From positions 96,001-160,000 of the forward strand of contig CAWDKY010000014.1 in the NCBI GenBank assembly GCA_963802945.1: a stretch of 64,000 nt of DNA, given 5' to 3'. Position 1 is the first letter of the stretch. Each line of letters starts with the position of its first letter. The stretch is from an uncultured delta proteobacterium (lineage in GTDB: Bacteria; Desulfobacterota; RBG-13-43-22). Both the position numbers and the translations under genes were made by a program. The notes beneath the pieces were generated by a model. The model saw nothing but the letters and a program-made list of their open reading frames with translations, had not been told where the DNA came from and searched no databases. Positions 17,103-45,477 of this stretch are shown piece by piece.

Positions 17103-17167
17103 GCTGCCTATCCATCGTCTCTCCCTGACCGAGAATAACTTAATGCTGTCCCTGGTTTTTTTCGCCA

Positions 17168-17209
17168 GGGGTTGTTAGCCAAGTCCGTTCTGCACGAACG
17201 TCCCGTCTT
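17168..17209. repeat. Partial copy of the right flank of repeat family R1
   Basis: GGGGTTGTTAGCCAAGTCCGTTCTGCACGAACGTCCCGTCTT closely matches 24771-24812. Confidence 0.7.
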
Positions 17210-17323
17210 ATTTCCTAGGTACGTGGTTGAACGACAATTTTATAAAAGCGGGGCTAACGTGGAACTGCAATAGAGTTGAAGATGTGTTTCAGCCATCGTT
17301 TTTATTTGGAGTTAAGGAATTAA

Positions 17324-18568
17324 ATGGTCAAAAAAATAAAAAATATCTTTTACGGCTGGTGGATAGTTATTGCCTCTTTTGTCTTGCTGGTCATAGCTGG
17401 GGGAACGGCCCTCTATGGCTTTACGGCTTTTTTTAACCCTATATCTTCGGAAATGAAGTGGGGGAGTGCGGCAGTATCTTTTGCTTTCTCTTTGAGGAGT
17501 GTCGAGGGTGGGGTTTTTCAACCTCTCATAGGTATTTTCGTCGAACGCCTTGGCGTCAGGAAATGTATCTTCGTCGGCCTAACGCTCATGGGGTTTTCGC
17601 TATTTCTTCTCAGTCGAATGACGTCGCTCACGATTTTTTATGTAGGTTTTGTGATCTTATCGTTAGGATTCACAATGGCTGCCGGTATTGCTGAATACAC
17701 GGCCGTAGCGAATTGGTTCAAGAAGCAACGTTCATTAGCCCTTGGCTTAGTTACAACCGGATGGGGCGTCTCCGGCCTAATGACGCCTATCATCGCCATG
17801 ATGATAAGCTTTGTCGGATGGCGTGAGACCATGTTTCTTCTGTGCCCCTTCATCATGGTGATTGGAATTCCCCTGTCTTTTATGATCAGAGACCGGCCCC
17901 AATCTTACGGGATGCAGCCGGATGGTGTCATGCTGGAAGAAAATCCCACGGAGACCGCTCATTTTCAAGAAGGGATGGGACTTACCCTGAAGGAAGGCCT
18001 GAAAACAAGGACGTTCTGGATGCTTTTTCTCTACACCTTCTGCATTGAGTTTGCCTTCAGTACTATTCCCGTGCAGGAAATGCCTCACCTGATCAATGTC
18101 GGCATATCGGAAAAATTGGCTGCCTTTACTATGGCCGGCTATGCTCTGGTAAGCCTGGTTGGCAGACTCTTTATTTCCTGGTTGGGCGACACTTACAGCA
18201 AGAAACATCTTCTCATAGTCTCAGCAGCCATGCAGGCTACCGGTTTTTTCATTTATGCCAAGATAAGCAGCCCCTGGATGATTATCCCCTTCATCATCCT
18301 CTACGGACCAGGCTTCGGCGCTACGACCCCCCTTCTTCCGGCGATTCAGGCCGACTATTTCGGAATCAGGTCCTTCGCCTCTCTTCGGGGTATGATGTCC
18401 ATAGGGTATGCTGTCCCAGGCATCATTGCTCCTGTTTTCGCCGGCTGGATATTTGATACCTATCACAGTTACACGATTGCTTTTCAAATCTACGCCTTAG
18501 TGGCGGCCCTGTCTATTCCGGCCTTGATGATGATACCAAAAAAATCAAAAACAGAAAATTCGGGATGA
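17324..18568 (+). CDS. MFS transporter (OFA/MCT-like)
   Basis: About 12 hydrophobic segments; FYGWWIV start, ERLGVR motif A, VANWFKKQR, ADYFG. Confidence 0.88.
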   Translation: MVKKIKNIFYGWWIVIASFVLLVIAGGTALYGFTAFFNPISSEMKWGSAAVSFAFSLRSVEGGVFQPLIGIFVERLGVRKCIFVGLTLMGFSLFLLSRMTSLTIFYVGFVILSLGFTMAAGIAEYTAVANWFKKQRSLALGLVTTGWGVSGLMTPIIAMMISFVGWRETMFLLCPFIMVIGIPLSFMIRDRPQSYGMQPDGVMLEENPTETAHFQEGMGLTLKEGLKTRTFWMLFLYTFCIEFAFSTIPVQEMPHLINVGISEKLAAFTMAGYALVSLVGRLFISWLGDTYSKKHLLIVSAAMQATGFFIYAKISSPWMIIPFIILYGPGFGATTPLLPAIQADYFGIRSFASLRGMMSIGYAVPGIIAPVFAGWIFDTYHSYTIAFQIYALVAALSIPALMMIPKKSKTENSG

Positions 18569-18595
18569 ACATAGGAATGGAAAGGAGAACTTATC

Positions 18596-19762
18596 ATGTA
18601 CACGGTTCATATCCATTTTACCAAACGACTGGCCAAGGTTCAGGAGGCCATTAAAAAGCATAATCTGGACATCCTGATCGGGACCCGTCTCAAGACCATT
18701 ACGCATGTCTGCGGCGCCTTCTGCCCCTGGCGGAGTGGGGTTATCATCCCGGCCTCAGGGGAGATCTGTCTGATACCTCCATCGATGGATGTGAATCGCC
18801 TGGCTCAGGAAGGCTGGCTTGAACAGGTGGAGGGATACGGCAAACTCACCTTGATGGAAACTATCATCCGGAAGATCCGAAGTCTGGGTCTGGAGGAGGG
18901 GAGAATAGGCTTCGAGAGCGGGTCTTCAGCCTACCTTCCCGAGGGTTACTTAAGCGTTTGGGAGTATCAGGAACTGCAGAAAGGGCTTCCGAAGGCCACC
19001 CTGATTAATGCGGTTGAGATCTTCGATCAGCTCACGCTGGTGAAGGAAGAAGCCGAAGTGCGGCTAATGAGACAGGCCACGGCCATCGTGGATACCGCCC
19101 ACGAGGAAGTGCGCAAATTTTTACGGCCCGGCGTAACCGAGAAACAAATTGCCGGGGTCGCGGAAAAGGTGATGCGGGATGTCGGCAGCGAATTCGCCTG
19201 GACCTTCACGGGCGGGCAGGAAGTGGCTTCCGGTTATCGGACTTGGACAGGGGCCTGCACCCCGGCCACGGATAAGATCGTCCAATACCATGAATTTGTT
19301 CTGCTCGATCTTCATGGCATGTACGGGCTGATGCTTGGAGACGTCTCACATAACGCCATTATGGGCCAGCCGGATGGCGCCCAGAGAAAGGTGATCGATG
19401 CCTACGTAAAAACCTGTGAGCGTATCGTGGAGGTCATGCGTCCGGGAAAGAGCCTGGGAGAAGTCGGCAGAGATGTCCGCGAATTTGTGGTGCGTAACGG
19501 CTGGGATAAGTTTATCCGGGGATTCGGTCATGGGATCGGTCATGCCGGCCATGAATGGTATCCCACGTTGACCGATATCAAAATTCCCCACGTCTCCGAA
19601 CCCGACTATGTCATCGAGCCCAATTACATACAGATGATTGCGGTTACGGCCAATCAGGTCGGTGTGGGCGGTTTAAGAATGGAAAGGCCCCTGCTCATGA
19701 CGGAGACAGGCAATGAACTGCTTTCCAAAATGCCTTTTGAGCCTTGGGTCATCGAAAGGTGA
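18596..19762 (+). CDS. M24 family (Xaa-Pro peptidase/creatinase-like) hydrolase
   Basis: Creatinase-like N-domain, LVKEEAEV, LDLHG..GDVSH, GHGIGH, GLRMER. Confidence 0.8.
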   Translation: MYTVHIHFTKRLAKVQEAIKKHNLDILIGTRLKTITHVCGAFCPWRSGVIIPASGEICLIPPSMDVNRLAQEGWLEQVEGYGKLTLMETIIRKIRSLGLEEGRIGFESGSSAYLPEGYLSVWEYQELQKGLPKATLINAVEIFDQLTLVKEEAEVRLMRQATAIVDTAHEEVRKFLRPGVTEKQIAGVAEKVMRDVGSEFAWTFTGGQEVASGYRTWTGACTPATDKIVQYHEFVLLDLHGMYGLMLGDVSHNAIMGQPDGAQRKVIDAYVKTCERIVEVMRPGKSLGEVGRDVREFVVRNGWDKFIRGFGHGIGHAGHEWYPTLTDIKIPHVSEPDYVIEPNYIQMIAVTANQVGVGGLRMERPLLMTETGNELLSKMPFEPWVIER

Positions 19763-19858
19763 TTTTTTGTTGTTAATAACGAAACCTTCTATAACATAAA
19801 TACTTTTTTTTAGTGAAGGGTGCAGCGCAACAAAGAAGATAGACTTTTTACGAAGTTG

Positions 19859-20906
19859 TCATTCTTCATACAAGGCCCTTTGCTCAGGGTTCATGTTTGA
19901 CAGATGCTTTTTAGCCTCTTCGGGCGAAACGGCCATTAAAGTACCGTCCGGCTCCTGAATGACTACCCCACTGTTGATGATCATTTTATAACGCTCCTGA
20001 CGCACCTGTTTGTCGGGGTGGCAGATAAACTGGCAGTGACCGCAGGTGAACTCAAGGAGGTTTCCGGGCATCAAGGCATGGTAAAGCCCATAATCCGCTT
20101 TTTTTCTGTTGCGATAAGCGGGGACCGCCTTTATCAAGGCGCCCAGAAATTCCTCATCCTTTTCAGGGATCGGGAAACGTCCCGGTGACCAGGTGGACCA
20201 CTTCCCGGATTGATGCAAACCGGTAAACCCTCCACAAACGTATTCGCAACGGTTGTAAGAACGACGCTTGGAATAATTGAAATTTCTATTCCCCAAGGTG
20301 ACCGTGGTTTCCTCATCCGAAGACATCAAACCGGATGCACAGGCGGACATACAAAGACGGCAGCTATCGCAGTAATTATCCTCAGGCGGTAAAGGATCGG
20401 TGGGGATCAGTTCCGCTTCGGTGACCACAGAGGCCAGAATGATGGCCGCCCCGACCTTATTCATAATGACATTACCGGACAGACCAAAGTAACCGATCCC
20501 TGACCTTACGGCCAGATAGCGGTGGGAAATAGGGGGTTTTTCATCATAAGGGCCGTTTGGAGTGTCTTTTCGATAAACGGTATTGGCCACTAACGGCACG
20601 GATTTATAGCCCTTCATATTCAGAAACTCCGACAACTCCAAAGCAAGGCCGCTGGCCATGTTATTGACCCGGCGGTTGTCAATGTTGGCCGAAGCCATAT
20701 CCTCTTTTTTCAAAAAACGTTCGATAGCTCTTTGATCTAACGGCACGGCAAAGACGACGGCCGACCTGGCCTCCGGAAGGACATAAGTCAGGTCTGTGGA
20801 GGGCGGCCCACCTTCAAGGGTTTCTGTGGTTGTAATCCCGACGGCAATAGCGCCCGAATTCTTAACTAAATTTTTCACATATCTGCGTTAATTGCTCCTT
20901 ATCCAT
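19859..20906 (-). CDS. QueG/reductive-dehalogenase-like Fe-S protein; frameshift near the N-terminus
   Basis: ISHRYLAVRSGIGYFGLSG, CDSCRLCMSAC, RCEYVC, TCGHCQFIC; ATG at 20906 with GGAGG is out of frame by 1 nt. Confidence 0.72.
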
Positions 20907-20938
20907 TTTTTCCTCCTTACCGTATAAATTTTATTCTC

Positions 20939-21387
20939 TCATAAAAGCAACCCAAGCCTGCGGAGATCTCTCAGATTTCCGCAGGGGGCACAGTCTGCGG
21001 CACTACATCCCTCGAAATTTTGGTTTTTTCAAGTAAGCTAAGCCAGCAATCTTTTCTCCGCGCGGAGGTTAAGAGGTCTATTTCGCTTTCAATCCTGGAA
21101 AGGGAGTCAGAAAGCGGCCTTCTCAATTTTCGAGTTAGCCTTCGATCCTTGGTATTCTCAGATTTAGAAAGTAAAAGGATCCTACGGATATCTTTAATGG
21201 AGTAACCGATACGTTTGAGAACCTGGGCAGTTTGGATTACTAAAACTACCTCTTCCGCATATAATTTACGACCTCCAGGTGTAATGGAGATTGGAGTTAA
21301 AAGTCCTTCCGCCTCATAATGTCGAATTGTCCGAGGCGTGCAACCTGTGTGGCGGCAAATCTTGCCAATCAATATTCCATCGGCCAT
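20939..21387 (-). CDS. MerR-family transcriptional regulator with frameshifted Cys-rich C-terminus
   Basis: IGKICRHTGCTPRTIRHYEAEGLL HTH; alternate frame ends EGCSAADCAPCGNLRDLRRLGLLL* at 20939. Confidence 0.8.
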
Positions 21388-21421
21388 AAGATTTCTTTAG
21401 GATCCTTGAGGCTTTATTTTT

Positions 21422-21441
21422 ATTACATTACGTAACGTAAT
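21422..21441. promoter_or_regulatory. Palindromic operator candidate upstream of the MerR gene
   Basis: ATTACATTACGTAACGTAAT, 9 of 10 pairs complementary. Confidence 0.55.
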
Positions 21442-21546
21442 ATAATTAGAAGATCATGCCAAGCTTTTTTAAAAAGAGAATTAAAATTAGGTTGAGGTTG
21501 CTTAGAAGGAGTTGATTGTTTTGATAGAATAAACAAATATAATTAG

Positions 21547-21675
21547 TGATAGCGCCTAGTTATTAACCTTTGAGGAAAAGGGGACAAAGGTTTCAAAGGT
21601 GATCAGACTGCCGTCGTAACCATAGGTGATAGCTTTTGTCTCCCTGGTGATGTTCCCGATCTTGGGACCACAGAG
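21547..21675 (-). repeat. Repeat family R1 copy A (RHS/YD-like gene fragment)
   Basis: Core AAGGTTTCAAAGGTGATCAGACTGCCGTCGTAA; minus strand reads LCGPKIGNITRETKAITYGYDGSLITFETF. Confidence 0.8.
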
Positions 21676-21700
21676 CAATCCCGGTGCTGACAGGGGAATA

Positions 21701-22291
21701 TTACTTTGCAGCTGCCTGAAATTCGTTAGACTGAATGAACGCCAACAATTGCTTCTGTATCTCATTGAATACCACATCAAACGCCTCACGTGTCTTGCCA
21801 GGGGATGAAAGCGAAAATTCTCTCTCGAAGTTAATTTGTCTCTGAGCAAGGACCTTTCCATCCAGCGGATCAACAAGTTTTGCTGCAAGTTCGGCTTCTA
21901 TCATATACCTATTGCCATACCCATCACACCAAAAGCGAATTACATCAATAACCAACCTGGGGGCTTTCCTGTCGGTCCCTTCTGAAGTATAGCCGGTATG
22001 CTCCAGGGTATTTTTAGCCATCCCCCTCAAAACTATGTTAATCTCTTTTCCTTCCTCTGTTTGCAGGTCAAAAGGATTTCCATATCCTCCACGAATTTTC
22101 CCTAATAACCCAAAACTCTGGCCTCCATAGTTTATAAGACGTTTGTTGTTGACCTCTCCAACCACGACCGTCCCCCGCCTCACATCCGTTTTAGAAAGCG
22201 AATCAACTTTTATATCCATTGACGGAACACATGCACTCAGGAATGAAAGCAATGGCAATGCAAAAAACAATAACTGGGTTTTTTTCATCAT
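21701..22291 (-). CDS. Lipoprotein (YajG-like)
   Basis: Signal peptide with lipobox LSAC. Confidence 0.7.
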   Translation of the reverse strand: MMKKTQLLFFALPLLSFLSACVPSMDIKVDSLSKTDVRRGTVVVGEVNNKRLINYGGQSFGLLGKIRGGYGNPFDLQTEEGKEINIVLRGMAKNTLEHTGYTSEGTDRKAPRLVIDVIRFWCDGYGNRYMIEAELAAKLVDPLDGKVLAQRQINFEREFSLSSPGKTREAFDVVFNEIQKQLLAFIQSNEFQAAAK

Positions 22292-22425
22292 GTTCTTGTC
22301 CTCCTCTCTTATGCGATTTTGAGGCCGTTGTATAACAGCCTAGGTAACAATGTTTTTTCCTTAAAGAACCAAGCTTGAAAATTTATCACAGCCTATCATA
22401 ACAGAACCAATCCAAATCATAAGGG

Positions 22426-23190
22426 TCAGGCCGAGGCGCCTCCATCGATCACCAGTACGGAACCGGTAATATAACTCGAAGCATCAGAGGCCAGAAAGAT
22501 GGCTCCTGCGGCGACGTCATTGGGTGTACCAATACGACGCAGGGGGTAGCGATTGATGAGGGCCGCCCTTTTTTCCTCCGTGTCGATGAGAGCTTTGGAG
22601 AAACTGGTCTCCACCAACCCTGGAGCGATGGCATTGACCCGGATATTATCAGGCCCCAGCTCTTTGGCAAACCCTTTGGTCAAGTTGATGATACCGGCCT
22701 TGGTCAAACCATAAGTCACTTCGCCCGGCAACGGTCTGATCCCGGCAATAGAGGAGATGTTGATGATCGAGCCGCCGCCCCGCTTCTTCATCAGCTTGGC
22801 GGCCAATTGTATCATCAGATAGAAGCCCTTGAGGTTGACTTCGAAGGTCTTGTCTATCGTGCTCTCGGGGGCGTCGACGGCCGGGCCGTAATAGGGATTG
22901 GTCGCGACGTTGTTGACCAGTATATCGAGCCCTCCGAGTTCCTGCTCCACTCTGGTGAACAGGAGCTTCATGTCAGCAAGTTTTCCACCGTGGCAGACGA
23001 TAGGAACGGCCTTTCCGCCGCTTTGGCGAATAGAGGCGGCGACTTTTTCCAGGTTCTCCGGCTTGCGTGCCGTGATTACGACGGTTGCGCCCTGTTCGGC
23101 AAACCCTCTGGCGATGGCCTCTCCATTGCCGCGACTGGCTCCGCTTATGATGGCAATACGGTTGGTAAGGTCAAAGTTGGCAGTCGGCAT
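22426..23190 (-). CDS. Short-chain dehydrogenase/reductase
   Basis: SGASRGNG, LVNN, YGLTK catalytic motif, IRVNAIAPG. Confidence 0.92.
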   Translation of the reverse strand: MPTANFDLTNRIAIISGASRGNGEAIARGFAEQGATVVITARKPENLEKVAASIRQSGGKAVPIVCHGGKLADMKLLFTRVEQELGGLDILVNNVATNPYYGPAVDAPESTIDKTFEVNLKGFYLMIQLAAKLMKKRGGGSIINISSIAGIRPLPGEVTYGLTKAGIINLTKGFAKELGPDNIRVNAIAPGLVETSFSKALIDTEEKRAALINRYPLRRIGTPNDVAAGAIFLASDASSYITGSVLVIDGGASA

Positions 23191-23462
23191 GGCATTTATC
23201 CTTTCATTGATGAATAATAGAACTAACTATTTCAAGGTTAAAATATACGAAGAATGATCTTGGATGTCAAAGGAATTTATAAAATATGGGGGCTGGTAGT
23301 ATGGCTAACTTTCTTTATTTTGCTTGACAGAAAAATCCTGTTTCAATATATTCAGTGCCGTAAAGAAGAGAGCCTTTAGTCCATTTCGTTGCAAGGGGCG
23401 CTCCTTTTTTTCAAGAAACCCCCTTCTCAAAAGACAATAATTTTTCGACAGGAGGAGATCAT

Positions 23463-24230
23463 ATGAGTTATGAAAGTATTATTGTAGAAACTAAAGATTT
23501 CATTACCACCATTACCCTCAACCGTCCACCCATGAACGCCGTCAATCATGTTTTGCGTATAGAATTTCAAAAGGCCGTTCAGGAAATCGAAAACAGCAAG
23601 GAAACCCGGGTGGTCATCATTACGGGCGCCGGAGATAGGGGGTTCAGCGCCGGCATGGATTTGTCGGACATGGCCAACTACGGCTTAGGGCCTGACGGCA
23701 ATGAAATCATGAATGCCATTTCCCGTTCGGCGAAGCCCTATATAGCGGCGATCAACGGCCACGCTCTGGGCGGCGGCTGCGAAACCGCTCTGGCCTGTCA
23801 TTTCCGTTTCATGACGGACAGTCCCAAGGCCACGATCGGTCTTACGGAAGTCAATCTCGGCATTACCCCAGGCTGGGGCGGCATCCAGCGTTTGCCGCAC
23901 GTAGTCGGGAAACCCAAAGCCCTGGATATGATTTTGTTCAGTAAGAGACTTACCGGGCCGGAAGCCCTGGCGATCGGGTTAGTCGATCGAGTTGTTCCCG
24001 CCGCCGATCTTATGAAGGAGGCCACAGCGTTTGCCCAGACCCTGGCCAAGCGCGCGCCCCTGTCGGTATCTGCGGTACTGGTAGGCATGAGCGTCGGCCT
24101 GGACAAAGGCATTGATGAAGGGTTGAAAGTGGATCGTGAATGGTCATCTAAACTGGGTGCGAGCAAAGACGCCCAGGAAGGCATGGGGGCGTTTTTTCAA
24201 AAACGCGAACCCGTATTTACCGGGGAATAG
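23463..24230 (+). CDS. Enoyl-CoA hydratase/isomerase
   Basis: LNRPPMNA, FSAGMDL, NGHALGGGCE, LTEVNLGITPGWGG. Confidence 0.92.
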   Translation: MSYESIIVETKDFITTITLNRPPMNAVNHVLRIEFQKAVQEIENSKETRVVIITGAGDRGFSAGMDLSDMANYGLGPDGNEIMNAISRSAKPYIAAINGHALGGGCETALACHFRFMTDSPKATIGLTEVNLGITPGWGGIQRLPHVVGKPKALDMILFSKRLTGPEALAIGLVDRVVPAADLMKEATAFAQTLAKRAPLSVSAVLVGMSVGLDKGIDEGLKVDREWSSKLGASKDAQEGMGAFFQKREPVFTGE

Positions 24231-24250
24231 TCACTGAACATCGCTTTAAT

Positions 24251-24312
24251 AAAAGGCGCAGGCTATCGACTTTAACCTGGCAGTGAGGTCATCAGCCTGC
24301 GCCATTTTTTTT
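24251..24312. terminator. Probable bidirectional terminator between convergent genes
   Basis: AAAAGGCGCAGGCT...AGCCTGCGCCATTTTTTTT. Confidence 0.7.
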
Positions 24313-24370
24313 CAAAAATCCTTGGATACCCCGCATGGAAGTATCGGGGTTGAAAAACTAACGGTCCATT

Positions 24371-24652
24371 CTATTTTTTGGCCAGTTGTCTGGCCCAAAT
24401 GGTCAGCCAGATGACGACAAATAACATCAGGGCGATGACGAACTTGGAGGCCACCATGGCCCGCAGCCAGATCGTACGGATTTCCGGCCAGGAAACGCCT
24501 GGACCCCATAAGCAAACTATTCCTGTCGGCTGCTTGTTCATCATCAGTAAATAAACAATCCATTGATACAGCAGGATACAAAAGGCGATTAACAAAGTCC
24601 ACCATCCAGCCGTTGCCGCTCCCCGCACTTTTTTTATAAATAGTTCATCCAT
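24371..24652 (-). CDS. Small two-TM membrane protein
   Basis: AGGAG SD, two hydrophobic helices, 93 aa. Confidence 0.65.
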   Translation of the reverse strand: MDELFIKKVRGAATAGWWTLLIAFCILLYQWIVYLLMMNKQPTGIVCLWGPGVSWPEIRTIWLRAMVASKFVIALMLFVVIWLTIWARQLAKK

Positions 24653-24670
24653 ACCGATCTCCTTTTTTTT

Positions 24671-24810
24671 AAGGTTTCAAAGATGATTAGTCTGTTTTCA
24701 TAACCGTTGTTGATGTTCCTAATCTTCGAACGCAGATATAGTTAAAAGCAAAGTTTTCATCAGAAGTGATGGGTTATCGGCTAAGCACGTTCTGCACGAA
24801 CGCCCCGTCT
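24671..24810 (-). repeat. Repeat family R1 copy B
   Basis: AAGGTTTCAAAGATGATTAGTCTG...TTTTCATCAGAAGTGATGGGTT...; fills almost the whole intergenic space. Confidence 0.8.
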
Positions 24811-25815
24811 TTATTTACTCGGGGAGGGCTTTAAATATTTATCAAACCATTCAACAGCCATCCCGATGGTCTCTGCCCGGCCTTGGTCGTAAATCTGAAA
24901 ATGTGTTCCTGCAAAAACCTCATATTTTGCAGGTACATTACCTTTGACCATATCGTACACCCTTTCCCCATTTTCCCTATTAACAATCAATTCGTCTTTT
25001 TCGGCGACGATGATCAGAATAGGGATCTTTAACCGGCCGGCAAATTCTACAGGACGATATTTTGCAATTCTGGACAAGTGGGGAGTACCGCTGAGGGAAA
25101 ACAGCTTGAAGCCTTGAGGTACCGGATCGATCTCCCCGCGGGCCTGCTGAGTGGCCAGCTTGCGAGGCTGGTAGATCTGATTCACCCAATTGCCGTCCAT
25201 GGAAGGGACATGACTGACGATGCATTGGACACGATCGTCATGTGCGGCCACATAGAGGACATGGCCCCCGCCAAAACTGGTTCCCCAGAGACCGATGCGC
25301 TTGGTGTCCACACCAGGCTCACCGGAAAGAAAGTCGAGGCAATGGATGATGTCTTCGGTCTGGTCAAAGGGGTCCACCAGTTCCCGAATGGCCCGGGCGC
25401 GGACGGTAACATCTCCATTCGCATCAGGAACAGGCATCTTTCCCTTGATGACCAGACGACTGTCACTGTCTCCCCAACCGCGATAGTCAAAAGTCAAAAC
25501 CACGTATCCAGCTTTAGCGAATAGCGGGGCATACCCGGCGTTCAGATGGGACCGCACGCCACCCCATCCATGGCAAAGTATAATGGCCGGGCACTTGTCT
25601 TCGGCTTTCAAACCTTTGGGCCGCCAGAGATCACCGGAAATTCTGGTGCCGTCGCTCCAGATATCCACATGGCGGGATTCTATCCCTACGCTTACGGCCT
25701 CCTCTGACTGCACCTCCCGCGTCCCAAAAAGGATAAGGACCATCAGGGTCATAAGACCGATAACAAAAAAGGTAATGGGAGGTTTTCTCATTTTAAGAGC
25801 GCTCTTTTTTTCCAC
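24811..25815 (-). CDS. Exported alpha/beta hydrolase (S15/S9-like)
   Basis: N-terminal hydrophobic signal, HGWGG, FDYRGWGDS, GTSFGG nucleophile elbow, THF. Confidence 0.85.
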   Translation of the reverse strand: MEKKSALKMRKPPITFFVIGLMTLMVLILFGTREVQSEEAVSVGIESRHVDIWSDGTRISGDLWRPKGLKAEDKCPAIILCHGWGGVRSHLNAGYAPLFAKAGYVVLTFDYRGWGDSDSRLVIKGKMPVPDANGDVTVRARAIRELVDPFDQTEDIIHCLDFLSGEPGVDTKRIGLWGTSFGGGHVLYVAAHDDRVQCIVSHVPSMDGNWVNQIYQPRKLATQQARGEIDPVPQGFKLFSLSGTPHLSRIAKYRPVEFAGRLKIPILIIVAEKDELIVNRENGERVYDMVKGNVPAKYEVFAGTHFQIYDQGRAETIGMAVEWFDKYLKPSPSK

Positions 25816-25842
25816 CTGGGCACAAGACGACAGCTAATCGTT

Positions 25843-26955
25843 CTAACAAGGCGGCCCATATTGACTCATAATAGCCGTATAGGGAACCACCGTTGGCCTG
25901 GCAAAATTTTGCCTGACATCGTTCAGTTTTTCCCCTCTAATCTCAATATCATTCAGGTTTCCCGGGGTCATTCCAGCCTTCCAGGCCCAGACGAAGGTCG
26001 AGATTTCACTCGGTTGAAAACCCATGATGGAGGCAGCGACCATATCTGTTGCCAGCGGGTTCGTACCGGCAATGATGACATCCATCTTTATCAATTTTCC
26101 GCCTCCCATTGCGGATGGACCCTGTCCTTGCATGGCCATAGACCCATCTATGACCACCAGTCCTAGCTTGTTCGCCCGTACCATATCTACGATAGCAGAG
26201 GCCGTTCCAGAACTCTCCACCTTTGTGGCCTCGGAGTGAACTGCCGAACGGACGGTTCCATAGACTTGCCCGGGATAGACCCCTATGAGGTTTTTCATTC
26301 CCAAGGTGACGGTCGCCAGGCCATGTGTTTTCATCATGGGAACGGAACAGAGGAGGTCGGTGTCGGCCAGTGAACGATGAATACTGATCTCCTTGAAAAC
26401 GAAGTTGTTGGGCAAACTCTTTTTCGACATTTCACCAACATGGAGGTTCACGAGTGGTATCTTGAGCGACTTGGCCAGATCGGAATAACCAAGACTGTCG
26501 AAAACGCTTTTTTGGATCTGGTTGAGCATTTCTTTATCGGTCGTTCTGCAAACACTGCCAAAGATGCCCGGACGTATATTACCAGCCCCCGCGGCTGAGC
26601 CTTCGCCGATGGATACATCTTTTCCGGATTCGATCATGAGTTGCGCCAGCGCCTTGATAACGCTCGGTTTTGTTACATCGGTCGGCGCGGGGCTTACAAG
26701 GTTGGGCTTCAACATGATCCGCTCCTTACCAGACGTTATTGACCGCATGCCGCCAAGCAGGTCTATGGCCTTCCTTAGGGCATAATCGATATTGTCTTTA
26801 TCGATCTTCACAACAGAAACGACGTCTTTGTTTTCTAAAGCCAGCGATTCTTTAAGACCTGGAAAGGCAAAAGAAGTCACGATATTTCCCAACCCTAAAA
26901 CAGCTCCTCCTGCTGCCACTTTTTTAATAAAATCTCTTCTGTTGATTTCTTTCAT
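25843..26955 (-). CDS. Tat-exported DUF362-domain protein
   Basis: NRRDFIK Tat motif; KPNLV, VPMMKTH, TLGMKNLIG, GQGP, NPLATD. Confidence 0.85.
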   Translation of the reverse strand: MKEINRRDFIKKVAAGGAVLGLGNIVTSFAFPGLKESLALENKDVVSVVKIDKDNIDYALRKAIDLLGGMRSITSGKERIMLKPNLVSPAPTDVTKPSVIKALAQLMIESGKDVSIGEGSAAGAGNIRPGIFGSVCRTTDKEMLNQIQKSVFDSLGYSDLAKSLKIPLVNLHVGEMSKKSLPNNFVFKEISIHRSLADTDLLCSVPMMKTHGLATVTLGMKNLIGVYPGQVYGTVRSAVHSEATKVESSGTASAIVDMVRANKLGLVVIDGSMAMQGQGPSAMGGGKLIKMDVIIAGTNPLATDMVAASIMGFQPSEISTFVWAWKAGMTPGNLNDIEIRGEKLNDVRQNFARPTVVPYTAIMSQYGPPC

Positions 26956-27160
26956 CGTGACCTCCTATTTTGTTTCTTTCCCTTAGAAAATACATACAGC
27001 GTCTGATGCTCAATAGAAAACAAAAGCCACAACAACCGATTATGTTTTTGCAGACCAACGGTTCCCCAAAATGTACATTATTAATGTTGTTAAGCAGACA
27101 ACCGTTCCCTATTGCCTATTCATCTCCAACAATTCCGAAGATAAATTAGAAATAAAAATT

Positions 27161-27238
27161 AGGGACAGCGCTTCCGTTTTTAGAAAGGTTTCAAAGGTGA
27201 TCAGGCTCCCGTCATAACTGTAGGTGATAGCTTCTGTC
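27161..27238 (-). repeat. Repeat family R1 copy C
   Basis: AGGGACAGCGCTTCCGTTTTTAGAAAGGTTTCAAAGGTGATCAGGCTCCCGTCATAACTGTAGGTGATAGCTTCTGTC. Confidence 0.8.
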
Positions 27239-27274
27239 CGGCTCCACGTCCTGCCTCAGACGAGAAGGGGGATG

Positions 27275-28576
27275 CTATGTGCAAAGTTTTCTTACGATAT
27301 CAATATAAATGGCAGTCCCCTTTATCATATTATCAATAGATATCTTTTCATCCTTTCCATGAATCATATTTAAATGCTCTCCAGGAATAACAATAGGACT
27401 AAACCCATAAGCAGTTATTCCCTTTTCCCTAAAATAACGAGAATCAGATGTCCCAGATAAAAGGTAAAAAAGCATTAGAGAATTTTTAAAATGTTCATTA
27501 AGCACATCCTGAATAATAATAAAATCTTTATTATGGGTATCAGACACATTTCCTTCTGAGGCTAATATTTTTTCTATTTTTATATCCTTATCAGCAAGTT
27601 TTTCCCTTACAAAGTCAACGAACTCATTAATATCCTGACCCGGCAACAATCGGATATCCAGCTGTGCTTTAGCATAATCTGGAATTACATTTATCTTATC
27701 ACCTGCCTTTAACATATTAAGGCTAATGGTGTTTCTTACCATCGCATTTATTTGTGGCACTCCGAGCATACCATTTTTCTTTATTACCCGGGCTAATGTT
27801 TTATATTTGCCATCTTTTTTAAAGGGACTGAGGAAAGTCCATTCGGATGAAAGCTTTTTAAAATAGTCTCCCACGATTGGAGTAATAATTATTGGCAGCT
27901 CTGCTGAAAGAAGCCTGTTTAATGCTTTAGTCATTTTCACTAAGGCATTCTGAAAATGGGGTGTAGAACCATGCCCGGAAGGTCCGTTACAAGTTAACTT
28001 AAGCCAGCATGGTCCCTTTTCAGCAGTGGCAAAAAGCATTATAATTTTATCTGGAATAATATCTGAAATTCCATAGGCACCTTCATTTAAAACAAGGGCT
28101 GCTTTAAAATCATCAGGGTAATTTTCCAATAGGTACCTCATCCCCAACGAGCCCCCCGTTTCTTCGTCGGCCACCGCAAGAAATACCAGGTCGCGATTAA
28201 GCGAGACGTCCTCTCTTCTCATAGCCAAAATGGCCATAAGCTGCATTACACCAATACTTTTCATATCCAGGGCCCCACGCCCACAGATATACCCGTCTAT
28301 GATATTCCCCCCGAATGGATCGAATGTAAACTCCTTGGAGTTTGCAAAAACCACATCCATATGGTTTAGGAGTATAAGGGGCCCTTTTTTACCGGGACCG
28401 GTTAATTTAGCTTTTATGGAAACTCTTCCAGGTTTGGATTCATAAGTCTGGTAGGTTATTTTTTCTTTGTCGAATATTTCAGCAAAGAACTCCACCGCTT
28501 TCGCCTCATTTCCAGGCGGATTTGTTGTATTGATCTGTAGGTATTTTGAAAGAATTTCTACCGGTTCAGGTATCAT
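27275..28576 (-). CDS. M20/M25/M40 metallopeptidase (ArgE/DapE-like)
   Basis: NPPGNE, NHMDVV, GRGALDMK, ADEETGG, GHGS, IHGKDE; visibly AT-rich. Confidence 0.9.
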   Translation of the reverse strand: MIPEPVEILSKYLQINTTNPPGNEAKAVEFFAEIFDKEKITYQTYESKPGRVSIKAKLTGPGKKGPLILLNHMDVVFANSKEFTFDPFGGNIIDGYICGRGALDMKSIGVMQLMAILAMRREDVSLNRDLVFLAVADEETGGSLGMRYLLENYPDDFKAALVLNEGAYGISDIIPDKIIMLFATAEKGPCWLKLTCNGPSGHGSTPHFQNALVKMTKALNRLLSAELPIIITPIVGDYFKKLSSEWTFLSPFKKDGKYKTLARVIKKNGMLGVPQINAMVRNTISLNMLKAGDKINVIPDYAKAQLDIRLLPGQDINEFVDFVREKLADKDIKIEKILASEGNVSDTHNKDFIIIQDVLNEHFKNSLMLFYLLSGTSDSRYFREKGITAYGFSPIVIPGEHLNMIHGKDEKISIDNMIKGTAIYIDIVRKLCT

Positions 28577-28595
28577 AATACAAACTCCCAAAGCT

Positions 28596-28650
28596 AAGGA
28601 CAGTGCCCGTTTTTAATAAGGTTTCAGAGGTGATCAGACTGCCGTCATAA
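28596..28650 (-). repeat. Repeat family R1 copy D
   Basis: AAGGACAGTGCCCGTTTTTAATAAGGTTTCAGAGGTGATCAGACTGCCGTCATAA. Confidence 0.8.
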
Positions 28651-28666
28651 AAGCTGACCGGATCAT

Positions 28667-30103
28667 CTAATCTTCAATCCCCGCCAATTTTTTAGCCAGC
28701 TTCTTCTTGCTTTCCGTATCACTTTCCCGGAAAAGGGTCACCCTGTGGGCCTCGGGAGAACCACCGCCATGGATATCCGATATAGTATCCGCGCTTTCCA
28801 GGGCCATTTTTTCAACGAGCCTAAACATCTTGACGCGGTTTTCCACGGGGACTCCCTCCGCACCCTTCATGTATTTCTTTAAAAGACCGCCGATCTCCGA
28901 ATTATCAAAGTCCCTGTCGGACGGCAGGTCAGCCACATAACCACCACAGATATCCACCATAAGGCGCATGGCCTCGCTTAATTCCTTCCCTTCATGGATC
29001 TTCGATGCATTGGCCAGGACTGTATCGATAAAATAGGTACCCGAAGGCTCTTTTTTACCTTCATAGGATGAAGCCAAACAACATCCATAGAGGGTTTCAG
29101 CCCTGTGGATCATGTCAATAACCTTCTGCTTAAGATGACCGGCCTTTTGGGTGCCGTTGTAGTCCATCATGGTCAGGGAAGCGCCGATCATGCAGTCGAT
29201 CTTGCCGGCCTTACAGCCGCCGTGACTCTGTCTGTGGAATGAGGAAAAACGGACTACCATTTCCGAGGCGAATTCCGTCTCCCCGCACATAAAGACCCTT
29301 TTCCAGGGGACAAAGACGTCATTGAAAATAATGGTCGGGCAATATTTGGAGTACCTAAAATTGCCAAGGTCGCAGCCGTCCAGTTCGCGGGTGTCCAGGC
29401 TGGATCGTCCTACGACATGGATCAATCCCTTGGTATCGGCCGGCACGGCAAAGGATACCGCGTAATCCTTATCTTCTTTGCTCAAGGCCCTGGTGGGTAA
29501 GACGATAATCTCATGACAGGACAGGGATCCTGTCTGATGCGCCTTGGCGCCGCGCACCACGATCCCGTCATCCCTTTTCTCAACGACGTGCAGGTACATG
29601 TCCTTGTCTTTCTGTTCCGTAGGGCCGAGCGACCTGTCGCCCTTGACGTCGGTGACGGCGGCATTGCCGGTCAGGTCATTTTTCTGCATATGTTTAAGAA
29701 ACTGGATAAAGTTTTCATAATATTTCGTGCCGTATTTCTTATCGATATCAAAGGTCACTATGGATAAAGCGGATAGACAATCCAGGCCGGTGCATCTTTG
29801 GTGGCATGTACCGACCAGGTTGGCCACCTTCCTATTGAGCTTTACCCGCGCGACCAGGTCTTCAATGGAAGAAGGCGGCAAGGTGAAACGGTTGACCGGT
29901 TCGTTAATGAGGGGGCTTTGGGTAACCGCCAGCCCTCGATATTCATCCTTCTCGGCCACTTCATAGGTTACGGCCGTGGCCTCAATCCCGGCCCTGAGCC
30001 TGGGGTTATCTACAATATTCGTAATCCTCTCACCGAACATGAAGGCCGTCGGTTTCAATTTTCGCAAAGACTCTATATATTGTTCTTTGGTCATCAATCC
30101 CAT
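28667..30103 (-). CDS. abfD: 4-hydroxybutyryl-CoA dehydratase/vinylacetyl-CoA isomerase family
   Basis: GTCHQRCTGLD and HRQSHGGCK Fe-S ligands, TDVKGDRS, RGAKAHQTG, IHGGGSP. Confidence 0.8.
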   Translation of the reverse strand: MGLMTKEQYIESLRKLKPTAFMFGERITNIVDNPRLRAGIEATAVTYEVAEKDEYRGLAVTQSPLINEPVNRFTLPPSSIEDLVARVKLNRKVANLVGTCHQRCTGLDCLSALSIVTFDIDKKYGTKYYENFIQFLKHMQKNDLTGNAAVTDVKGDRSLGPTEQKDKDMYLHVVEKRDDGIVVRGAKAHQTGSLSCHEIIVLPTRALSKEDKDYAVSFAVPADTKGLIHVVGRSSLDTRELDGCDLGNFRYSKYCPTIIFNDVFVPWKRVFMCGETEFASEMVVRFSSFHRQSHGGCKAGKIDCMIGASLTMMDYNGTQKAGHLKQKVIDMIHRAETLYGCCLASSYEGKKEPSGTYFIDTVLANASKIHEGKELSEAMRLMVDICGGYVADLPSDRDFDNSEIGGLLKKYMKGAEGVPVENRVKMFRLVEKMALESADTISDIHGGGSPEAHRVTLFRESDTESKKKLAKKLAGIED

Positions 30104-30163
30104 TTATGTTCCTCCTCGTGTTTTTTGAATAAATGCTTATTTCCCGATTATAACTTTAAACTT

Positions 30164-30338
30164 GGCATAGCGCCCATTTTTAGTAAGATTTCAGAGGTGA
30201 TCAGACTGCCGTCATAATGCTGGTGATAGTTTCTGTCTTCCTGGAGATGTTCCTGATCTTCAAACCGCATAGATAGTTAAAAACAACATTTTCATCAGAA
30301 GTGATGGGTTGTTGGCTAAGAATGTTTTGCAAGGGCGT
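30164..30338 (-). repeat. Repeat family R1 copy E (longest)
   Basis: Minus strand reads ITSDENVVFNYLCGLKIRNISRKTETIT-x-YDGSLITSEIL with one frameshift. Confidence 0.8.
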
Positions 30339-30455
30339 TAAGCTTTACGTACCATAGTTGGTGGTCATTAAAATATGGGAAGTGTCCCTCATTTTCACAT
30401 TTTTTATTGAATTCATTAAGATTTGAATCTCTTGGTTTGGTCCCCCCGTTCAATA

Positions 30456-30547
30456 AAAATTGCCTCACCGCACGGAATTCAACCTGTGCACCTACAACTC
30501 TTCAAAAAAGTTGGAACTAAAAATTAATGATTATGGATGGAAATATG
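30456..30547 (+). repeat. Repeat family R2 copy 1
   Basis: AAAATTGCCTCACCGCACGGAATTCAAC...CACCTACAACTCTTCAAAAAA...AAAATTAATGATTATGGATGGAAATATG. Confidence 0.7.
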
Positions 30548-30690
30548 GGAGAAATGGTTGGACCCCTCTGATCCTGAACTTAAAGTGCCATCGCTCCTTT
30601 TTTGGCCGTAGCCGCCTTCTTTCTTTGGGCTAACTCAGAGCTTATCCCCATGTTCAGGCTGCCCAACTAAGGAATCCACCCCCCCTTCAT

Positions 30691-31170
30691 TTAAATGAGT
30701 TTTTCTAGGTCGATATCTCTTTTAATATAGGATTCAAAATTTTTCAGCTCAGGAGTGTATCTTTGATTCATTAATGGAGAGGACATGATAAAATCCGCGG
30801 TTGCCCGGTTGCAGGCTATCGGCACATTGTAAAGGACGGCAATCCGCAATAACGCCTTCACGTCGACATCATGAGGATGAGGCTGCATCGGATCCCATAG
30901 AAATATGACCAGATCAATTTGGCCTTCCGTAATCAGTGCGCCCAACTGCTGGTCCCCGCCCAGCGGACCTGATTTCAATTTCTTTATGTGATAATCAACC
31001 GGTTCCCCCTCCAGCTTTGATTTAAGAGCTTCCTCAATCATTTTTCCTGTTGTCCCGGTACTAATCAGCTTGTGTTTTATTAAAGACCGGTAATTATATT
31101 CAAACCATTCGAGCAAATCCCTTTTACGGTTATCATGTGCGACGAGCGCGATATTTTTTATTTCTTCCAT
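30691..31170 (-). CDS. mgsA: Methylglyoxal synthase
   Basis: IALVAHD, STGTTG, SGPLGGDQQLGA, DPMQPHPHDVDVKALLR. Confidence 0.96.
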   Translation of the reverse strand: MEEIKNIALVAHDNRKRDLLEWFEYNYRSLIKHKLISTGTTGKMIEEALKSKLEGEPVDYHIKKLKSGPLGGDQQLGALITEGQIDLVIFLWDPMQPHPHDVDVKALLRIAVLYNVPIACNRATADFIMSSPLMNQRYTPELKNFESYIKRDIDLEKLI

Positions 31171-31347
31171 CTGCCCTCCTCAATAATATTCTTGTCTCAA
31201 AAAAAGATACAACAAAAAGAGAATAGTGGTCAAGGAAAAATCATTTTTGTGTGCAGGGGAAATTTGAAATACCAGAGGCAGCGGTCACCTTTTATACAGC
31301 CGGCCGCCATTCAGTCCGCAGTTCCCGGCTTCATTCGAGGAACGGAC

Positions 31348-31560
31348 TCAGGAGCAGCCCTTCTTTGAACTGGTTTGCGTTGAGCCATAGTCAAGTTTGA
31401 GCGGGGAGCCTTTGCCGAGATGTCGTTCAAAGATGTCGCCATAGTTGCCGACAGCCGCGAGAACTCGGCGCTGCCATCCCTTGTCCAGGCTCAACTCCTG
31501 CGCTGCGAACAGCATCGCTCCTGCGTCTCCTCCATACCAATGCGTTTCAGGCCTCTCCGC
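31348..31560 (-). pseudogene. C-terminal fragment of an AapJ/BztA-type amino-acid ABC transporter binding protein
   Basis: LDKGWQRRVLAAVGNYGDIFERHLGKGSPLKLD; no intact N-terminus. Confidence 0.6.
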
Positions 31561-31830
31561 GCTGGTTAGCGTATTCACAGTCCAGGCGACGACCGCTGGC
31601 GGACTCGATGGAAAAAGAGCCCTTGAGAATTCTATCCGTTCTTTCATACTGGAAAGCCTCAGACCCCTTTTGGACTTATCTTTTCGATTAGCTTTGAGGT
31701 TTCAGGATCGCCTTATTGTGTGGTTCTGAAAGAATCAAATCGAATTCTTCGGTTTTTAGGAGTTGTATGGCCTGCTGGAGTTGAACAGGGGAACGGATTA
31801 ATGTTCCCATTTTATTCAAAATAGGTTTTA

Positions 31831-31950
31831 GAAGAGTTCAGGAAGAAATCCTCAGGTTTTCTCAAACATGGCCGCACAGAACCGAATTCAACTCTTATCT
31901 ACTACTACACATTCGTGAACTGGATTTGAGGTGATGATTACGGGATGAAA
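31831..31950 (+). repeat. Repeat family R2 copy 2
   Basis: GAAGAGTTCAGGAAGAAATCCTCAGGTTTTCTCAAACATGGCCGCACAGAACCGAATTCAAC...GATGATTACGGGATGAAA. Confidence 0.65.
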
Positions 31951-32016
31951 GCAGCGTAATGTATTCAGCACAGACGAAAGCCAACAGGCTTTAGAAAATA
32001 GTTTGCGACTTTGTTA

Positions 32017-32949
32017 TTAATTAAACAGGCCATAAACGTTTTCTTCTGGTGGGGTACCTCTCTTTTCCAAAGAATACACAACCTTTTTGTAGTCGGGTTT
32101 ACCCTTTCGGTGTATAGAAATCAAAAACCGGAGTATATCTGTAGAGAATTTTCCTTCTACCGTCATTTGAGTCAAGACCTCAAGACAGGTGCGTAAATCA
32201 AAAGGTCGGTTGCGGTAGGGACGTGGCGAGATCAAGGCATCATAAACGTCACAAATGGCCACCATTTCCACAATAGGGCTGGAAATCGGAACTCCAAAGG
32301 GGTATCCGGAGCCGTCCAGCCGCTCGTGATGTTCCAGGGCTACCGTGGAGCCTAACAGATCCTTTTCCCCGTGAAAACAAGTGAGGAGAATGGCACCTGC
32401 CACCGTGTGATGACGAATACGTTGAAGTTCACTCCGGGTCAGCGGGGTCTTCTTTTGCAGGATTTCCATGGGTACATTGATCTTGCCAATATCATGGAGA
32501 GGTCCCATGACGGCAAAATGTCGTTCCCAATCCAGGAGGCGGATCAGTTCCATCGCCATGTAACCGGTAAGAACAAAAACATGAAGGGAATGCCAGTAGG
32601 TTGAGGGGTCTTTTTCTTTAAAAAAGTTCAGCCCATCTATTACGAAGGGAGAAAGCTGGGCATTTTTTAACATAGCTACCAATTTAGTTTTTACTTTAGT
32701 ATTTTTGAAAAGTTTCTGGTATGGCAAATCGGAAATGGCTTTGTTTAAGTCCGACCAGAGGGTGGGAAGGCCCTCGACAGGAATGAAAGGTTTGGGTTGG
32801 GAGGAAACCTCAATAATCTTCCAGAGAAATTGTTTGGAAAGCGGGGCACCCTTTCGGGCAATTAGATTACCCTTCAGATCCAACACCGGAAAAAGAAGAA
32901 TGTTATTTTTTTTCTTGGTTGAGGCAGTTAGAATTGGAAGCTTAGCCAT
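32017..32949 (-). CDS. HD-GYP domain phosphodiesterase
   Basis: TYWHS, LHDIGK, HHERLDGSGYP, DVYDALISPRPYR. Confidence 0.92.
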   Translation of the reverse strand: MAKLPILTASTKKKNNILLFPVLDLKGNLIARKGAPLSKQFLWKIIEVSSQPKPFIPVEGLPTLWSDLNKAISDLPYQKLFKNTKVKTKLVAMLKNAQLSPFVIDGLNFFKEKDPSTYWHSLHVFVLTGYMAMELIRLLDWERHFAVMGPLHDIGKINVPMEILQKKTPLTRSELQRIRHHTVAGAILLTCFHGEKDLLGSTVALEHHERLDGSGYPFGVPISSPIVEMVAICDVYDALISPRPYRNRPFDLRTCLEVLTQMTVEGKFSTDILRFLISIHRKGKPDYKKVVYSLEKRGTPPEENVYGLFN

Positions 32950-33031
32950 TTTTAATCCCCTTATGAGTAATATTATAAGTTTTGTTTGCGGTTAACCAAA
33001 TAAAAAGTGTACAAAAAACGATTTTAAAGAA

Positions 33032-34554: not shown

Positions 34555-34600
34555 TAACCAACCCTATTGAACTCTTGTCTTTTTTCATGAAAGGAATTTT

Positions 34601-45468: not shown

Positions 45469-45477
45469 GTAAGTCTT

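Follow-up and report, generated by a model that had tools for sequence, protein, structure and literature searches.

A decayed piece of an RHS/YD-shell gene, repeated between metabolic gene modules, apparently serves as a swap point in a Thermodesulfobacteriota lineage

Gene modules and repeat copies of the array

The window, i.e. the whole 64-kb stretch of DNA that was analysed, contains an array of gene modules separated by copies of a repeat, F1. The module between the first two copies is a 4-hydroxybutyryl-CoA dehydratase-like gene (28667..30103, minus strand; PDB 1u8v, E 2e-137), which we take to be abfD. It is followed by an M20 peptidase gene (27275..28591, minus), which has a low GC3 of 0.34 and also occurs in the related contig L004 (see below), and by the genes of a DUF362 protein with a TAT signal and an alpha/beta hydrolase (24811..26955, minus). 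The module at 21701..24652 codes for a small membrane protein (minus), an enoyl-CoA hydratase (ECH; plus), an SDR (minus) and a lipoprotein-like product (minus), and that at 17324..21387 for a MerR (minus), a QueG-like Fe-S protein (minus), an M24 peptidase (plus) and an MFS transporter (plus), i.e. the cargo genes are not all co-oriented. These labels agree with the Pfam, NCBIfam and PDB matches, except for those of the lipoprotein and the membrane protein, which were given from the sequence alone and matched no family. The original prediction spoke of units of one to three genes, and one unit was found to have four. The differing base composition that it reported was confirmed: the standard deviation of GC3 is 0.100 in 12 array genes vs 0.049 in 26 genes outside both this array and a second one, F2 (Levene p 0.026), while the mean is equal in the two sets, only the scatter being different.

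An nhmmer profile identified six F1 copies in the window, all on the minus strand and named E, D, C, B, A and Z. Copy E (30155..30342; nhmmer span 30342-30167, E 2e-54) is a full-length unit of the 1-nt-deletion subtype, whose right-end hairpin (30155-30183, minus) is degenerate. Copy D (28589..28650; nhmmer span 28675-28600) consists of a 5'-truncated core with an intact right end, and a 9-nt microhomology to the F1 unit overlaps the abfD stop codon. Copy C (27153..27243; nhmmer span 27243-27170) is a 55-nt core plus right end. Copy B (24653..24810) retains the full 5' part, carries an internal deletion of ~21 nt and lacks the right-end hairpin; in its place follows the poly-A/RBS stretch of the membrane-protein gene. 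Copy A (21541..21681; nhmmer span 21681-21584) is truncated at its 5' side and has a rearranged right end. Copy Z (17167..17207; E 4.5e-4), which adjoins glpP and forms the array boundary, retains only the 5'-most ~41 nt of the unit.

All five core copies proposed earlier were recovered, and with Z they make six. The latter had been described as a flank-only copy at 17168; a copy is indeed present there, but it is the 5' end of the F1 unit rather than a flank. The repeat length, given as 55-175 bp, is better described as a full unit of ~165 nt plus a right end of ~25 nt, with copies A, C and D truncated at different 5' points. Our re-measurement agrees with the claim that copies A-D begin within 0-36 nt of the stop codon of the upstream gene, and the M20 and membrane-protein genes start ~20 nt or less from the unit. 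The copy pairs reported by self-blastn have E-values of 3e-19 to 4.5e-5, and the present copies are 75-94% identical. The predicted clustering holds within the window: the six copies lie in 13 kb, the other 51 kb are free of them, and no further match of the profile in the 64 kb scored better than E 0.09. Six random points would fall inside 13.2 kb of the 64 kb with a probability of 0.0018, and all six would share one orientation with a probability of 0.031.

Searches for an RNA gene or riboswitch gave nothing near the Rfam gathering scores and no conserved fold (over the window, a single tRNA reached the gathering score), and the folding of no F1 copy clearly exceeds that of its shuffled versions (z -1.1 to +2.2). 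Within the F1 unit, only two sigma-70 promoter candidates reached 9/12, both at copy E and on the opposite strand, and in total such sites are no commoner than expected by chance.

Origin of the unit and nature of its ends

Judged by similarity, F1 is an internal piece of ~165 nt from a teneurin-like RHS/YD-shell gene, now non-coding. The RHS/YD origin suggested in the original prediction is upheld by tblastn (E 2.4e-6 and 1.3e-5) and by an nhmmer match (E 8e-24) to the related RHS locus L003. Copy A, in which the RHS frame is best preserved, matches the L003 RHS protein with 70% over 30 aa (E 2.4e-6, tblastn), and copy E matches its gene with 74.5% over 110 nt. Pfam assigns this parent TEN_YD-shell, NHL and RHS_repeat domains, as well as TTR and weak FN-plug matches, and the F1 piece maps to residues ~1874-1927 of 2417, i.e. 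inside the shell. In one genome scan, the pattern lay in frame within RHS-type reading frames at 4/5 loci. Bacterial teneurin-like proteins (PMC13018210) are the source family of F1; unlike them, it keeps only ~55 decayed codons and encodes nothing functional.

Of the 14 element ORFs that the test matched, 13 have a spacing of 14 residues, vs 18 in 5/9 of the RHS proteins given. This 4-codon deletion common to the F1 copies points to one founder, from which all of them descend. The loss of coding is evident from the changes by codon position, which number 2/8/8 in seven F1 copies vs 2/0/13 in four RHS genes. This pattern also rules out a small conserved protein encoded by F1, for which the ESM Atlas returned weak unnamed clusters only.

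The fragments had further been likened to RHS orphan modules. They cannot be classed as such, because the pieces derive from within the shell and lack a toxin tip; the hallmark of orphan arrays, a variable tip behind the hyperconserved 3' end of the core, is absent from F1. Neither an intact rhs gene, nor toxin-immunity cargo, nor any further RHS match was found in the window. A relic orphan array, in which metabolic genes overwrote the toxin-immunity tips, is largely refuted and in our opinion highly improbable. A truncated anchor followed by a module does mirror the dissociated tips of PMC2935791, and true RHS orphan arrays occur in the loci L002, L003 and L005; however, a mid-shell piece is not the conserved core end, other RHS remnants are missing from the window, and all copies share a deletion that is derived, as well as an end that is not of RHS type.

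Outside the window, at least 28 predicted short ORFs show the F1 unit. In three pairs among 25 element ORFs the longest contigs are equally long, an indirect sign of clustering outside the window, but these contigs may all represent the locus analysed here. The longer relatives were found by a profile search, the search with a single 42-aa protein being empty, and plasmid and phage collections yielded no real F1 copy.

At its fixed 3' end F1 carries an imperfect hairpin, similar to the GGGGWSAS repeats that terminate TIRYT (Y1 HUH) elements (PMC3733652). This motif is matched at 7/8 positions at C, at the left side of E and at r2 (r1-r3 are copies in L004), at 6/8 at D, and is degenerate or absent at A, B and the right side of E; A, B, E, r1 and r3 have a degenerate hairpin or none at all. 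A TIR-like left partner of copy E (30367..30400, minus), inverted with respect to the right end and ~25 nt upstream of the unit, scores higher against the right ends (76) than any other site of the window outside the training set, the next being at 64. Both TIR-like ends are present at copy E only; for the founder, the same bracketing by two TIRs may be assumed. The translated heads of P0009 and P0054 likewise suggest an inverted TIR pair, and the right-end motif continues in 11 of the 14 printed element-ORF tails. GGGGWSAS-type motif counts in the window show no enrichment; one 9-mer, chosen after the fact, is enriched (6 vs 1.3 expected), which is weak evidence. No target duplication was seen by eye at copy E.

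Related RHS loci also hold TIRs: in L005 a TIR-flanked Y1 gene lies in the RHS locus and a third TIR cuts an RHS orphan, and the RHS locus of L003 contains a 180-nt TIR dimer, whose interior had no plasmid match. Together with the GGGGWSAS-like end and the inverted pair at E, this likens F1 to TIRtrons (TIRYT subclass 2.1; PMC3733652; bioRxiv 10.1101/279083). Unlike TIRtrons, F1 carries a captured host-gene piece, most of its copies are one-ended, they lie in a single orientation amid the modules, and the 64-kb window revealed no Y1 gene; cargo exchange by TIRtrons is not described in the available text of these two sources.

The end motif had originally been compared with either the right half of an attC site or a GGGACAG REP-like end. 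Sites of the attC type are characterised by R''/R' box motifs. Such a pair occurs in 0/6 copies on either strand, with no hairpin beyond shuffles, and no IntI integrase was detected in the window among 71 ORFs or gene candidates or in six-frame translations of 11 intergenic stretches. The GGGACAG comparison stands, as this type resembles the GGGGWSAS TIRs, and the attC comparison falls. The TIRYT-like hairpin and its inverted partner at E, with attC fold and integrase absent, identify the common breakpoint as an element end and not attC. Copy B lacks the right-end motif and runs on into poly-A/RBS. The site-specific step that the common breakpoint was thought to hint at is not needed, because all copies derive from a founder with that end. 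An integron or CALIN with unusual attC sites is hardly credible. Its gene-repeat-gene layout and short stop-to-repeat distances would fit, integrons are known in Desulfobacterota, and integron/CALIN arrays also have co-oriented repeats between genes and variable content (PMC8618304); besides lacking attC structure and integrase, however, the F1 array showed no reordering and its modules comprise up to four genes, some of them divergent.

Gene content in a related genome

The sole relative with DNA context is L004, a 7.5-kb MAG contig 91-94% identical to the window. It has four F1 copies, 4/4 co-oriented, and its cargo differs, as had been anticipated for relatives, in this one genome pair. Cytochrome genes occupy the abfD position (r1-r2 vs E-D). 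The DUF362 and hydrolase genes are missing, and the two genomes, compared at the sequence level, show this change in content to coincide with r3, a clean hybrid between C and B. The left flank of r3 equals the C flank (0/36 differences) and its right flank the B flank (1/100), while the core differs at 9-10/55 positions from C and at 10/40 from B, vs 7/140 in a control spacer (the Fisher p of 0.025 for the exchange test entered this control as 8/140, the counted value being 7/140). Rapid core decay could mimic core exchange. From the pairwise comparison of cores the rows for B and r2 were left out, being out of register.

Identity to the downstream module starts sharply at the 3' end of the F1 core, and the deletion and intact core subtypes were both found at three right flanks. 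The order of the shared genes (M20, membrane protein, ECH, MFS) is kept; with these genes collinear, module shuffling is unsupported in L004. The SDR-to-M24 block is absent, with a junction within the last MFS codons, outside any repeat, and a short TIR-like remnant (23282-23290) lies near the point where L004 diverges. Only one difference is a clean repeat-to-repeat event. Just upstream of copy r2, L004 contains a Y1 N-terminal remnant (E 5e-6, pairwise).

Because a related bacterium bears different gene blocks between the same copies, we propose that the repeat acts as a swap point for genes, as it seems to do. F1 might instead be a passive repeat, i.e. a genome-wide TIR/MITE-like family that is dense in a plastic island whose genes were there earlier, the clean difference being a chance direct-repeat deletion. 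We consider this unlikely, though worth serious attention. It agrees with the TIR-like ends, the neutral decay by codon position, the collinear genes and extra-repeat junctions of L004, the dimers or clusters formed by TIR families (PMC3733652) and a genome view limited to 64 kb. It is weakened by the copy-free 51 kb, by the single orientation of 6/6 window and 4/4 L004 copies, by the different genes enclosed by r1-r2 and E-D, by core subtypes unlinked from right flanks and by the tight M20 and membrane-gene starts. Like prokaryotic MITEs (PMC10969869; definition in PMC3733652), the element is ~200 nt long and non-coding, with TIR-like ends and several subfamilies; unlike them, it is clustered and co-oriented in the window and has a host-gene interior, and stable fold and target duplication were not seen.

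Proposed portable homology, the F2 array and possible gene capture

Based on these observations, we suggest, with a probability of about 0.5, that an accessory island was seeded by a non-autonomous mini-element, whose copies now provide portable homology through which modules are gained and lost. The element of ~200 nt would have been founded once, when an internal teneurin-like RHS/YD-shell piece landed between TIRYT-type terminal repeats, and would then have been copied, probably by a Y1 HUH transposase in trans, its copies seeding one accessory-gene island in a Thermodesulfobacteriota lineage. Being co-oriented, these would offer portable homology, and modules would drop out or enter because crossovers in the last ~55 nt pair a left module with a new right one. 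Modules may leave as circles or arrive from a relative bearing the same unit, presumably through host recombination, and the fixed 3' breakpoint would be the inherited end of the element. Copies 75-94% alike are poor substrates for homologous recombination. Of the earlier idea that an RHS-derived anchor is a recombination site for metabolic cargo, the RHS anchor and the different cargo in L004 survive, and the site-specific step does not.

Such a system would work like RHS C-terminal displacement, only with a non-coding anchor and metabolic cargo. Displacement arrays (Jackson et al. 2009, PMC2935791), with which T6SS immunity arrays (PMC5361080) are grouped here, also have co-oriented anchors of variable 5' length, a fixed 3' junction and differing modules; their content varies between relatives, and circle excision with homology re-entry has been proposed. 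Unlike these, the F1 anchor is non-coding, mid-shell and of single-founder origin; neither toxin tips and immunity genes nor an intact rhs gene accompany it, and its cargo is metabolic, with 1-4 genes.

A second array, F2 (30432..34725, minus), overlooked in the original prediction, adjoins the F1 array beside IS91-like remnants. Its five co-oriented copies (30432-30546, 31820-31950, 33251-33315, 33926-34056 and 34590-34725, minus) are unrelated in sequence to F1; mgsA and the genes of an HD protein, a GGDEF remnant and PilZ lie amid them, with sodC upstream. At the head of the array is a remnant of an IS91-family (Y2 HUH) transposase (34805..34918, minus; 66% over 38 aa to a plasmid transposase, E 6e-10; Pfam Y2_Tnp E 0.006, below the cut-off), and a second IS91-like remnant (34084..34170, minus; 45% over 29 aa, E 0.001) lies directly upstream of an F2 copy. 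As the oriIS of these remnants, F2 gave no match above shuffles to the one plasmid element compared; as a gene fragment, it was blank in Pfam, protein search and Atlas.

The two arrays could also represent a non-integron cassette system, in which a HUH enzyme in trans (TIRYT or IS91-like Y2) nicks the right-end hairpin on single-stranded DNA, and the unit is copied with variable upstream DNA by one-ended transfer and inserted at another copy. In that case Thermodesulfobacteriota would possess an undescribed integrase-free cassette system, whose TIRYT/IS91-type enzymes capture genes behind small gene-derived anchors and string metabolic and signalling modules into co-oriented arrays, with F1 and F2 as neighbouring, independent anchor families; this we think doubtful. 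Fixed 3' and variable 5' ends match one-ended transposition (PMC13181058), identity to the downstream module starts sharply at the core 3' end, HUH remnants abut copies in both arrays on the same strand, and genes are packed tightly against the unit. However, the 64 kb yielded neither an intact enzyme nor an end that matches the oriIS of the plasmid IS91 element; five copies (A, B, E, r1 and r3) have lost the hairpin or keep a degenerate form of it, there is no conserved fold, and common descent accounts for the fixed end. The likeness to IS91/ISCR elements (PMC13181058; PMC5737581) lies in one fixed and one variable end, the capture of adjacent genes and the remnants within F2; unlike these elements, F1 has ends resembling Y1 TIRs, and the enzymes are present as remnants only.

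Whichever reading holds, public sets list as 'hypothetical proteins' at least 28 predicted ORFs that are spurious and lie on the F1 element. If F1 does provide portable homology, little-studied TIRYT repeats would gain a possible genomic role and a substrate on which it can be tested, and such a route to accessory-gene arrays would escape integron finders and IS annotators. Our results suggest that part of a toxin-shell gene, once dead, can turn into a site at which metabolic genes are swapped repeatedly.

Clustered repeats and the modules they separate

A profile of F1, the RHS-derived repeat unit, trained on five copies of the window and four of a relative (L004, JBEKPQ010000154.1), detected six copies in the 64 kb, all on the minus strand, at 17167-30342, and none better than E 0.09 in the rest of it. 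The copies are clustered: by random placement the six-copy span has a P of 0.0018, and the single orientation arises by chance with P 0.031. Positions of the five core copies in the original prediction were confirmed; its flank-only copy at 17168 is present, but represents the first 41 nt of the unit (copy Z) and not flank. Copies B and E are full-length, and the 5' truncation points of A, C and D differ.

The modules consist of an abfD-like gene (PDB 1u8v, E 2e-137); an M20 peptidase; DUF362 with a hydrolase; a membrane protein, ECH, SDR and a lipoprotein-like gene; and MerR, a QueG-like Fe-S protein, M24 and MFS. The difference in base composition noted beforehand was borne out by GC3, whose sd was 0.100 in 12 array genes versus 0.049 in 26 genes outside arrays (Levene p 0.026). 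The MerR C-terminus (20971-21387) shows an apparent frameshift or truncation.

The suggested likeness of the motif beyond the breakpoint to an attC right half, which would point to an integron, did not hold: no R''/R' box pair was found in any of the six copies, no copy folds clearly beyond shuffles, and 71 ORFs or gene candidates plus 11 intergenic stretches of the window, read in six frames, contained no integrase or recombinase. An integron is very unlikely.

Other repeats in the window, some of them inverted and REP-like, are ordinary and dispersed, unlike the clustered F1 and F2 (a second repeat family): 39438-39595/58677-58848, 3324-3403/43326-43404, and 5201, 7196-7335, 14777 and 50921-50980. 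Two tandem alpha/beta hydrolase genes (~598 aa; 43672-47788) are 77% identical over 1.7 kb and have short repeated palindromic ends. In a glycerol-3-phosphate dehydrogenase cluster, a FAD_binding_2 protein extends over two adjacent ORFs (5284-6578), which may be a natural split, a frameshift or an assembly error. A HEPN_AbiU2 domain gene (56089-56652) adjoins a CAP-domain gene, possibly as a defence islet.

RHS origin and single founding of the F1 unit

The F1 unit is of RHS origin. One scan of 185,579 GTDB genomes with a degenerate F1 core pattern yielded 5 loci, all in Thermodesulfobacteriota/Desulfobacterales MAGs other than the window's own, and at 4 of these loci the pattern lies in frame within an RHS-type gene. 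The parent protein of one locus, L003 (2417 aa), matches teneurin NHL, TTR, YD-shell and RHS_repeat families. Bacterial teneurin-like toxins are built in this way (PMC13018210). The RHS resemblance noticed at the outset proved correct, as copies A and E match residues ~1874-1927 of this parent (E 2.4e-6 and 1.3e-5), a piece inside the shell and ~490 residues ahead of the C-terminus. No convincing match to other parts of RHS proteins was found in the window, and we consider a relic orphan array very improbable. Departures by codon position number 2/8/8 in seven F1 copies versus 2/0/13 in four RHS genes, so the copies no longer code. Very large teneurin-like proteins (>2400 aa) also occur in Desulfobacterota MAGs at L001 749-9271 and L003 8524-15777; the tips of the latter match phospholipase A2 families.

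Searching 1.84 billion representatives with a profile gave 44 proteins, 32 of which were retrieved (15 RHS cores and 17 short ORFs called on the F1 unit). With a second search (25 matches, 11 new) the F1-unit ORFs amount to at least 28, among which P0012 is not independent, being identical to a frame of L004. A 14-residue spacing was found in 13 of the 14 F1 ORFs matched by the spacing test, versus 18 residues in 5/9 RHS proteins (remaining RHS rows unmatched or mis-anchored); the unit thus had a single founder. Judging from translations, 11 of 14 printed ORF tails would share the non-RHS right end, the fixed 3' end of the unit. Among the 25 ORFs of the second search, three pairs agree in the length of their longest contig (7936, 9687 and 3405), which hints indirectly that the unit is clustered at other places too.

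Putative terminal repeats and HUH remnants

The F1 right end forms a short, imperfect palindrome. Its reverse complement is similar to GGGGWSAS, the consensus given for the TIRs on either side of TIRYT Y1 transposases (PMC3733652; bioRxiv 10.1101/279083). With the right ends of D, C and L004 r2 as the reference, the highest-scoring site in the window, right ends excluded, was inverted and ~25 nt upstream of E (score 76, next 64). Against this reading, both TIR-like ends occur at copy E only, agreement with the consensus reaches 6-7 of 8 positions at best, and the short terminal motif is not enriched in the 64-kb window. In locus L005, a Y1 gene (5886-7649) that is flanked by TIRs and weakly matches a DnaA-type HTH lies in a teneurin-like RHS orphan array, in which a third TIR truncates an RHS orphan. 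L003 contains a TIR dimer, 180 nt apart, inside such an array (3085-3298). TIRYT is seldom treated in the literature searched.

Directly beside E, five co-oriented copies of F2, unrelated to F1, occupy 4.3 kb (30432-34725) among mgsA and cyclic-di-GMP-type genes (HD protein, GGDEF remnant, PilZ), with sodC upstream. The C-terminal GGDEF remnant (33336-33470, Pfam E 1.6e-5) ends just before an F2 copy. A 99-aa ORF (31348-31647) without Pfam or NCBIfam match resembles part of a gene for an amino-acid-binding protein. Two IS91-family transposase remnants, at 34805-34918 (E 6e-10) and 34084-34170 (E 0.001), share the strand of F2, and each is immediately upstream of one of its copies. Comparison of F2 with the end of a single IS91-like element gave no match. 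Since IS91 elements mobilise adjacent DNA of variable length from one fixed end (PMC13181058; PMC5737581), an HUH-driven mechanism is conceivable. A dedicated HUH cassette system seems unlikely. The 290-kb plasmid NZ_CP058410.1, with 13 transposase matches, has an IS91-like element (10069-12670, 17846-20456) whose cargo is a Phd/YoeB toxin-antitoxin pair plus a hydrolase gene.

Cargo differences in a relative

L004 (7.5 kb) is 91-94% identical to the window over three shared blocks and carries four co-oriented F1 copies. L004 is arranged as follows: end of an unknown ORF, r1, nine membrane-gene codons, flavocytochrome c, cytochrome c3, Y1 remnant, r2, M20, r3, membrane protein, ECH, r4 (5' part only) and MFS. 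Different cargo between the same repeats, as had been anticipated, was seen in this one genome pair: DUF362 and the hydrolase are missing at r3, and the cytochromes occupy the place of abfD. At r3 the left flank of C (0/36 differences) is joined to the right flank of B (1/100) in a clean hybrid junction; the r3 core differs from C at 9-10/55 and from B at 10/40 positions (control spacer 7/140), which could reflect fast core decay mimicking exchange. Both core subtypes (1-nt deletion, intact) precede the M20 (r2 vs P0050), abfD (E vs P0041, a short match) and membrane-gene (r1 vs r3) flanks, P0050 and P0041 being F1-unit ORFs, which suggests crossovers within the last few tens of bases, although a one-base deletion could recur. 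Behind r1 (L004 590-626) stands a duplicate of the membrane gene's first nine codons, joined at the point that is also seen at r3 and at copy B of the window.

The order of the common genes is unchanged, and the SDR-to-M24 block is missing from L004, where the junction falls within the tail of MFS, outside any repeat. That F1 is a passive repeat is a possibility, which we rate as the less probable one. The best explanation, to which we give a probability of roughly 0.5, is that the F1 founder was bracketed by TIRs, that a Y1 enzyme spread the unit in trans, and that modules were exchanged by homologous recombination. Circles might be the intermediates of this exchange, a route put forward for RHS tips (PMC2935791), or it might occur by homology-facilitated illegitimate recombination (PMC5361080). 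The literature searched, largely outside subscription journals, yielded no case in which a non-coding repeat of RHS descent separates metabolic modules. On this reading, the F1 array would unite two known kinds of arrangement, the RHS-style displacement array and the TIR mini-element.
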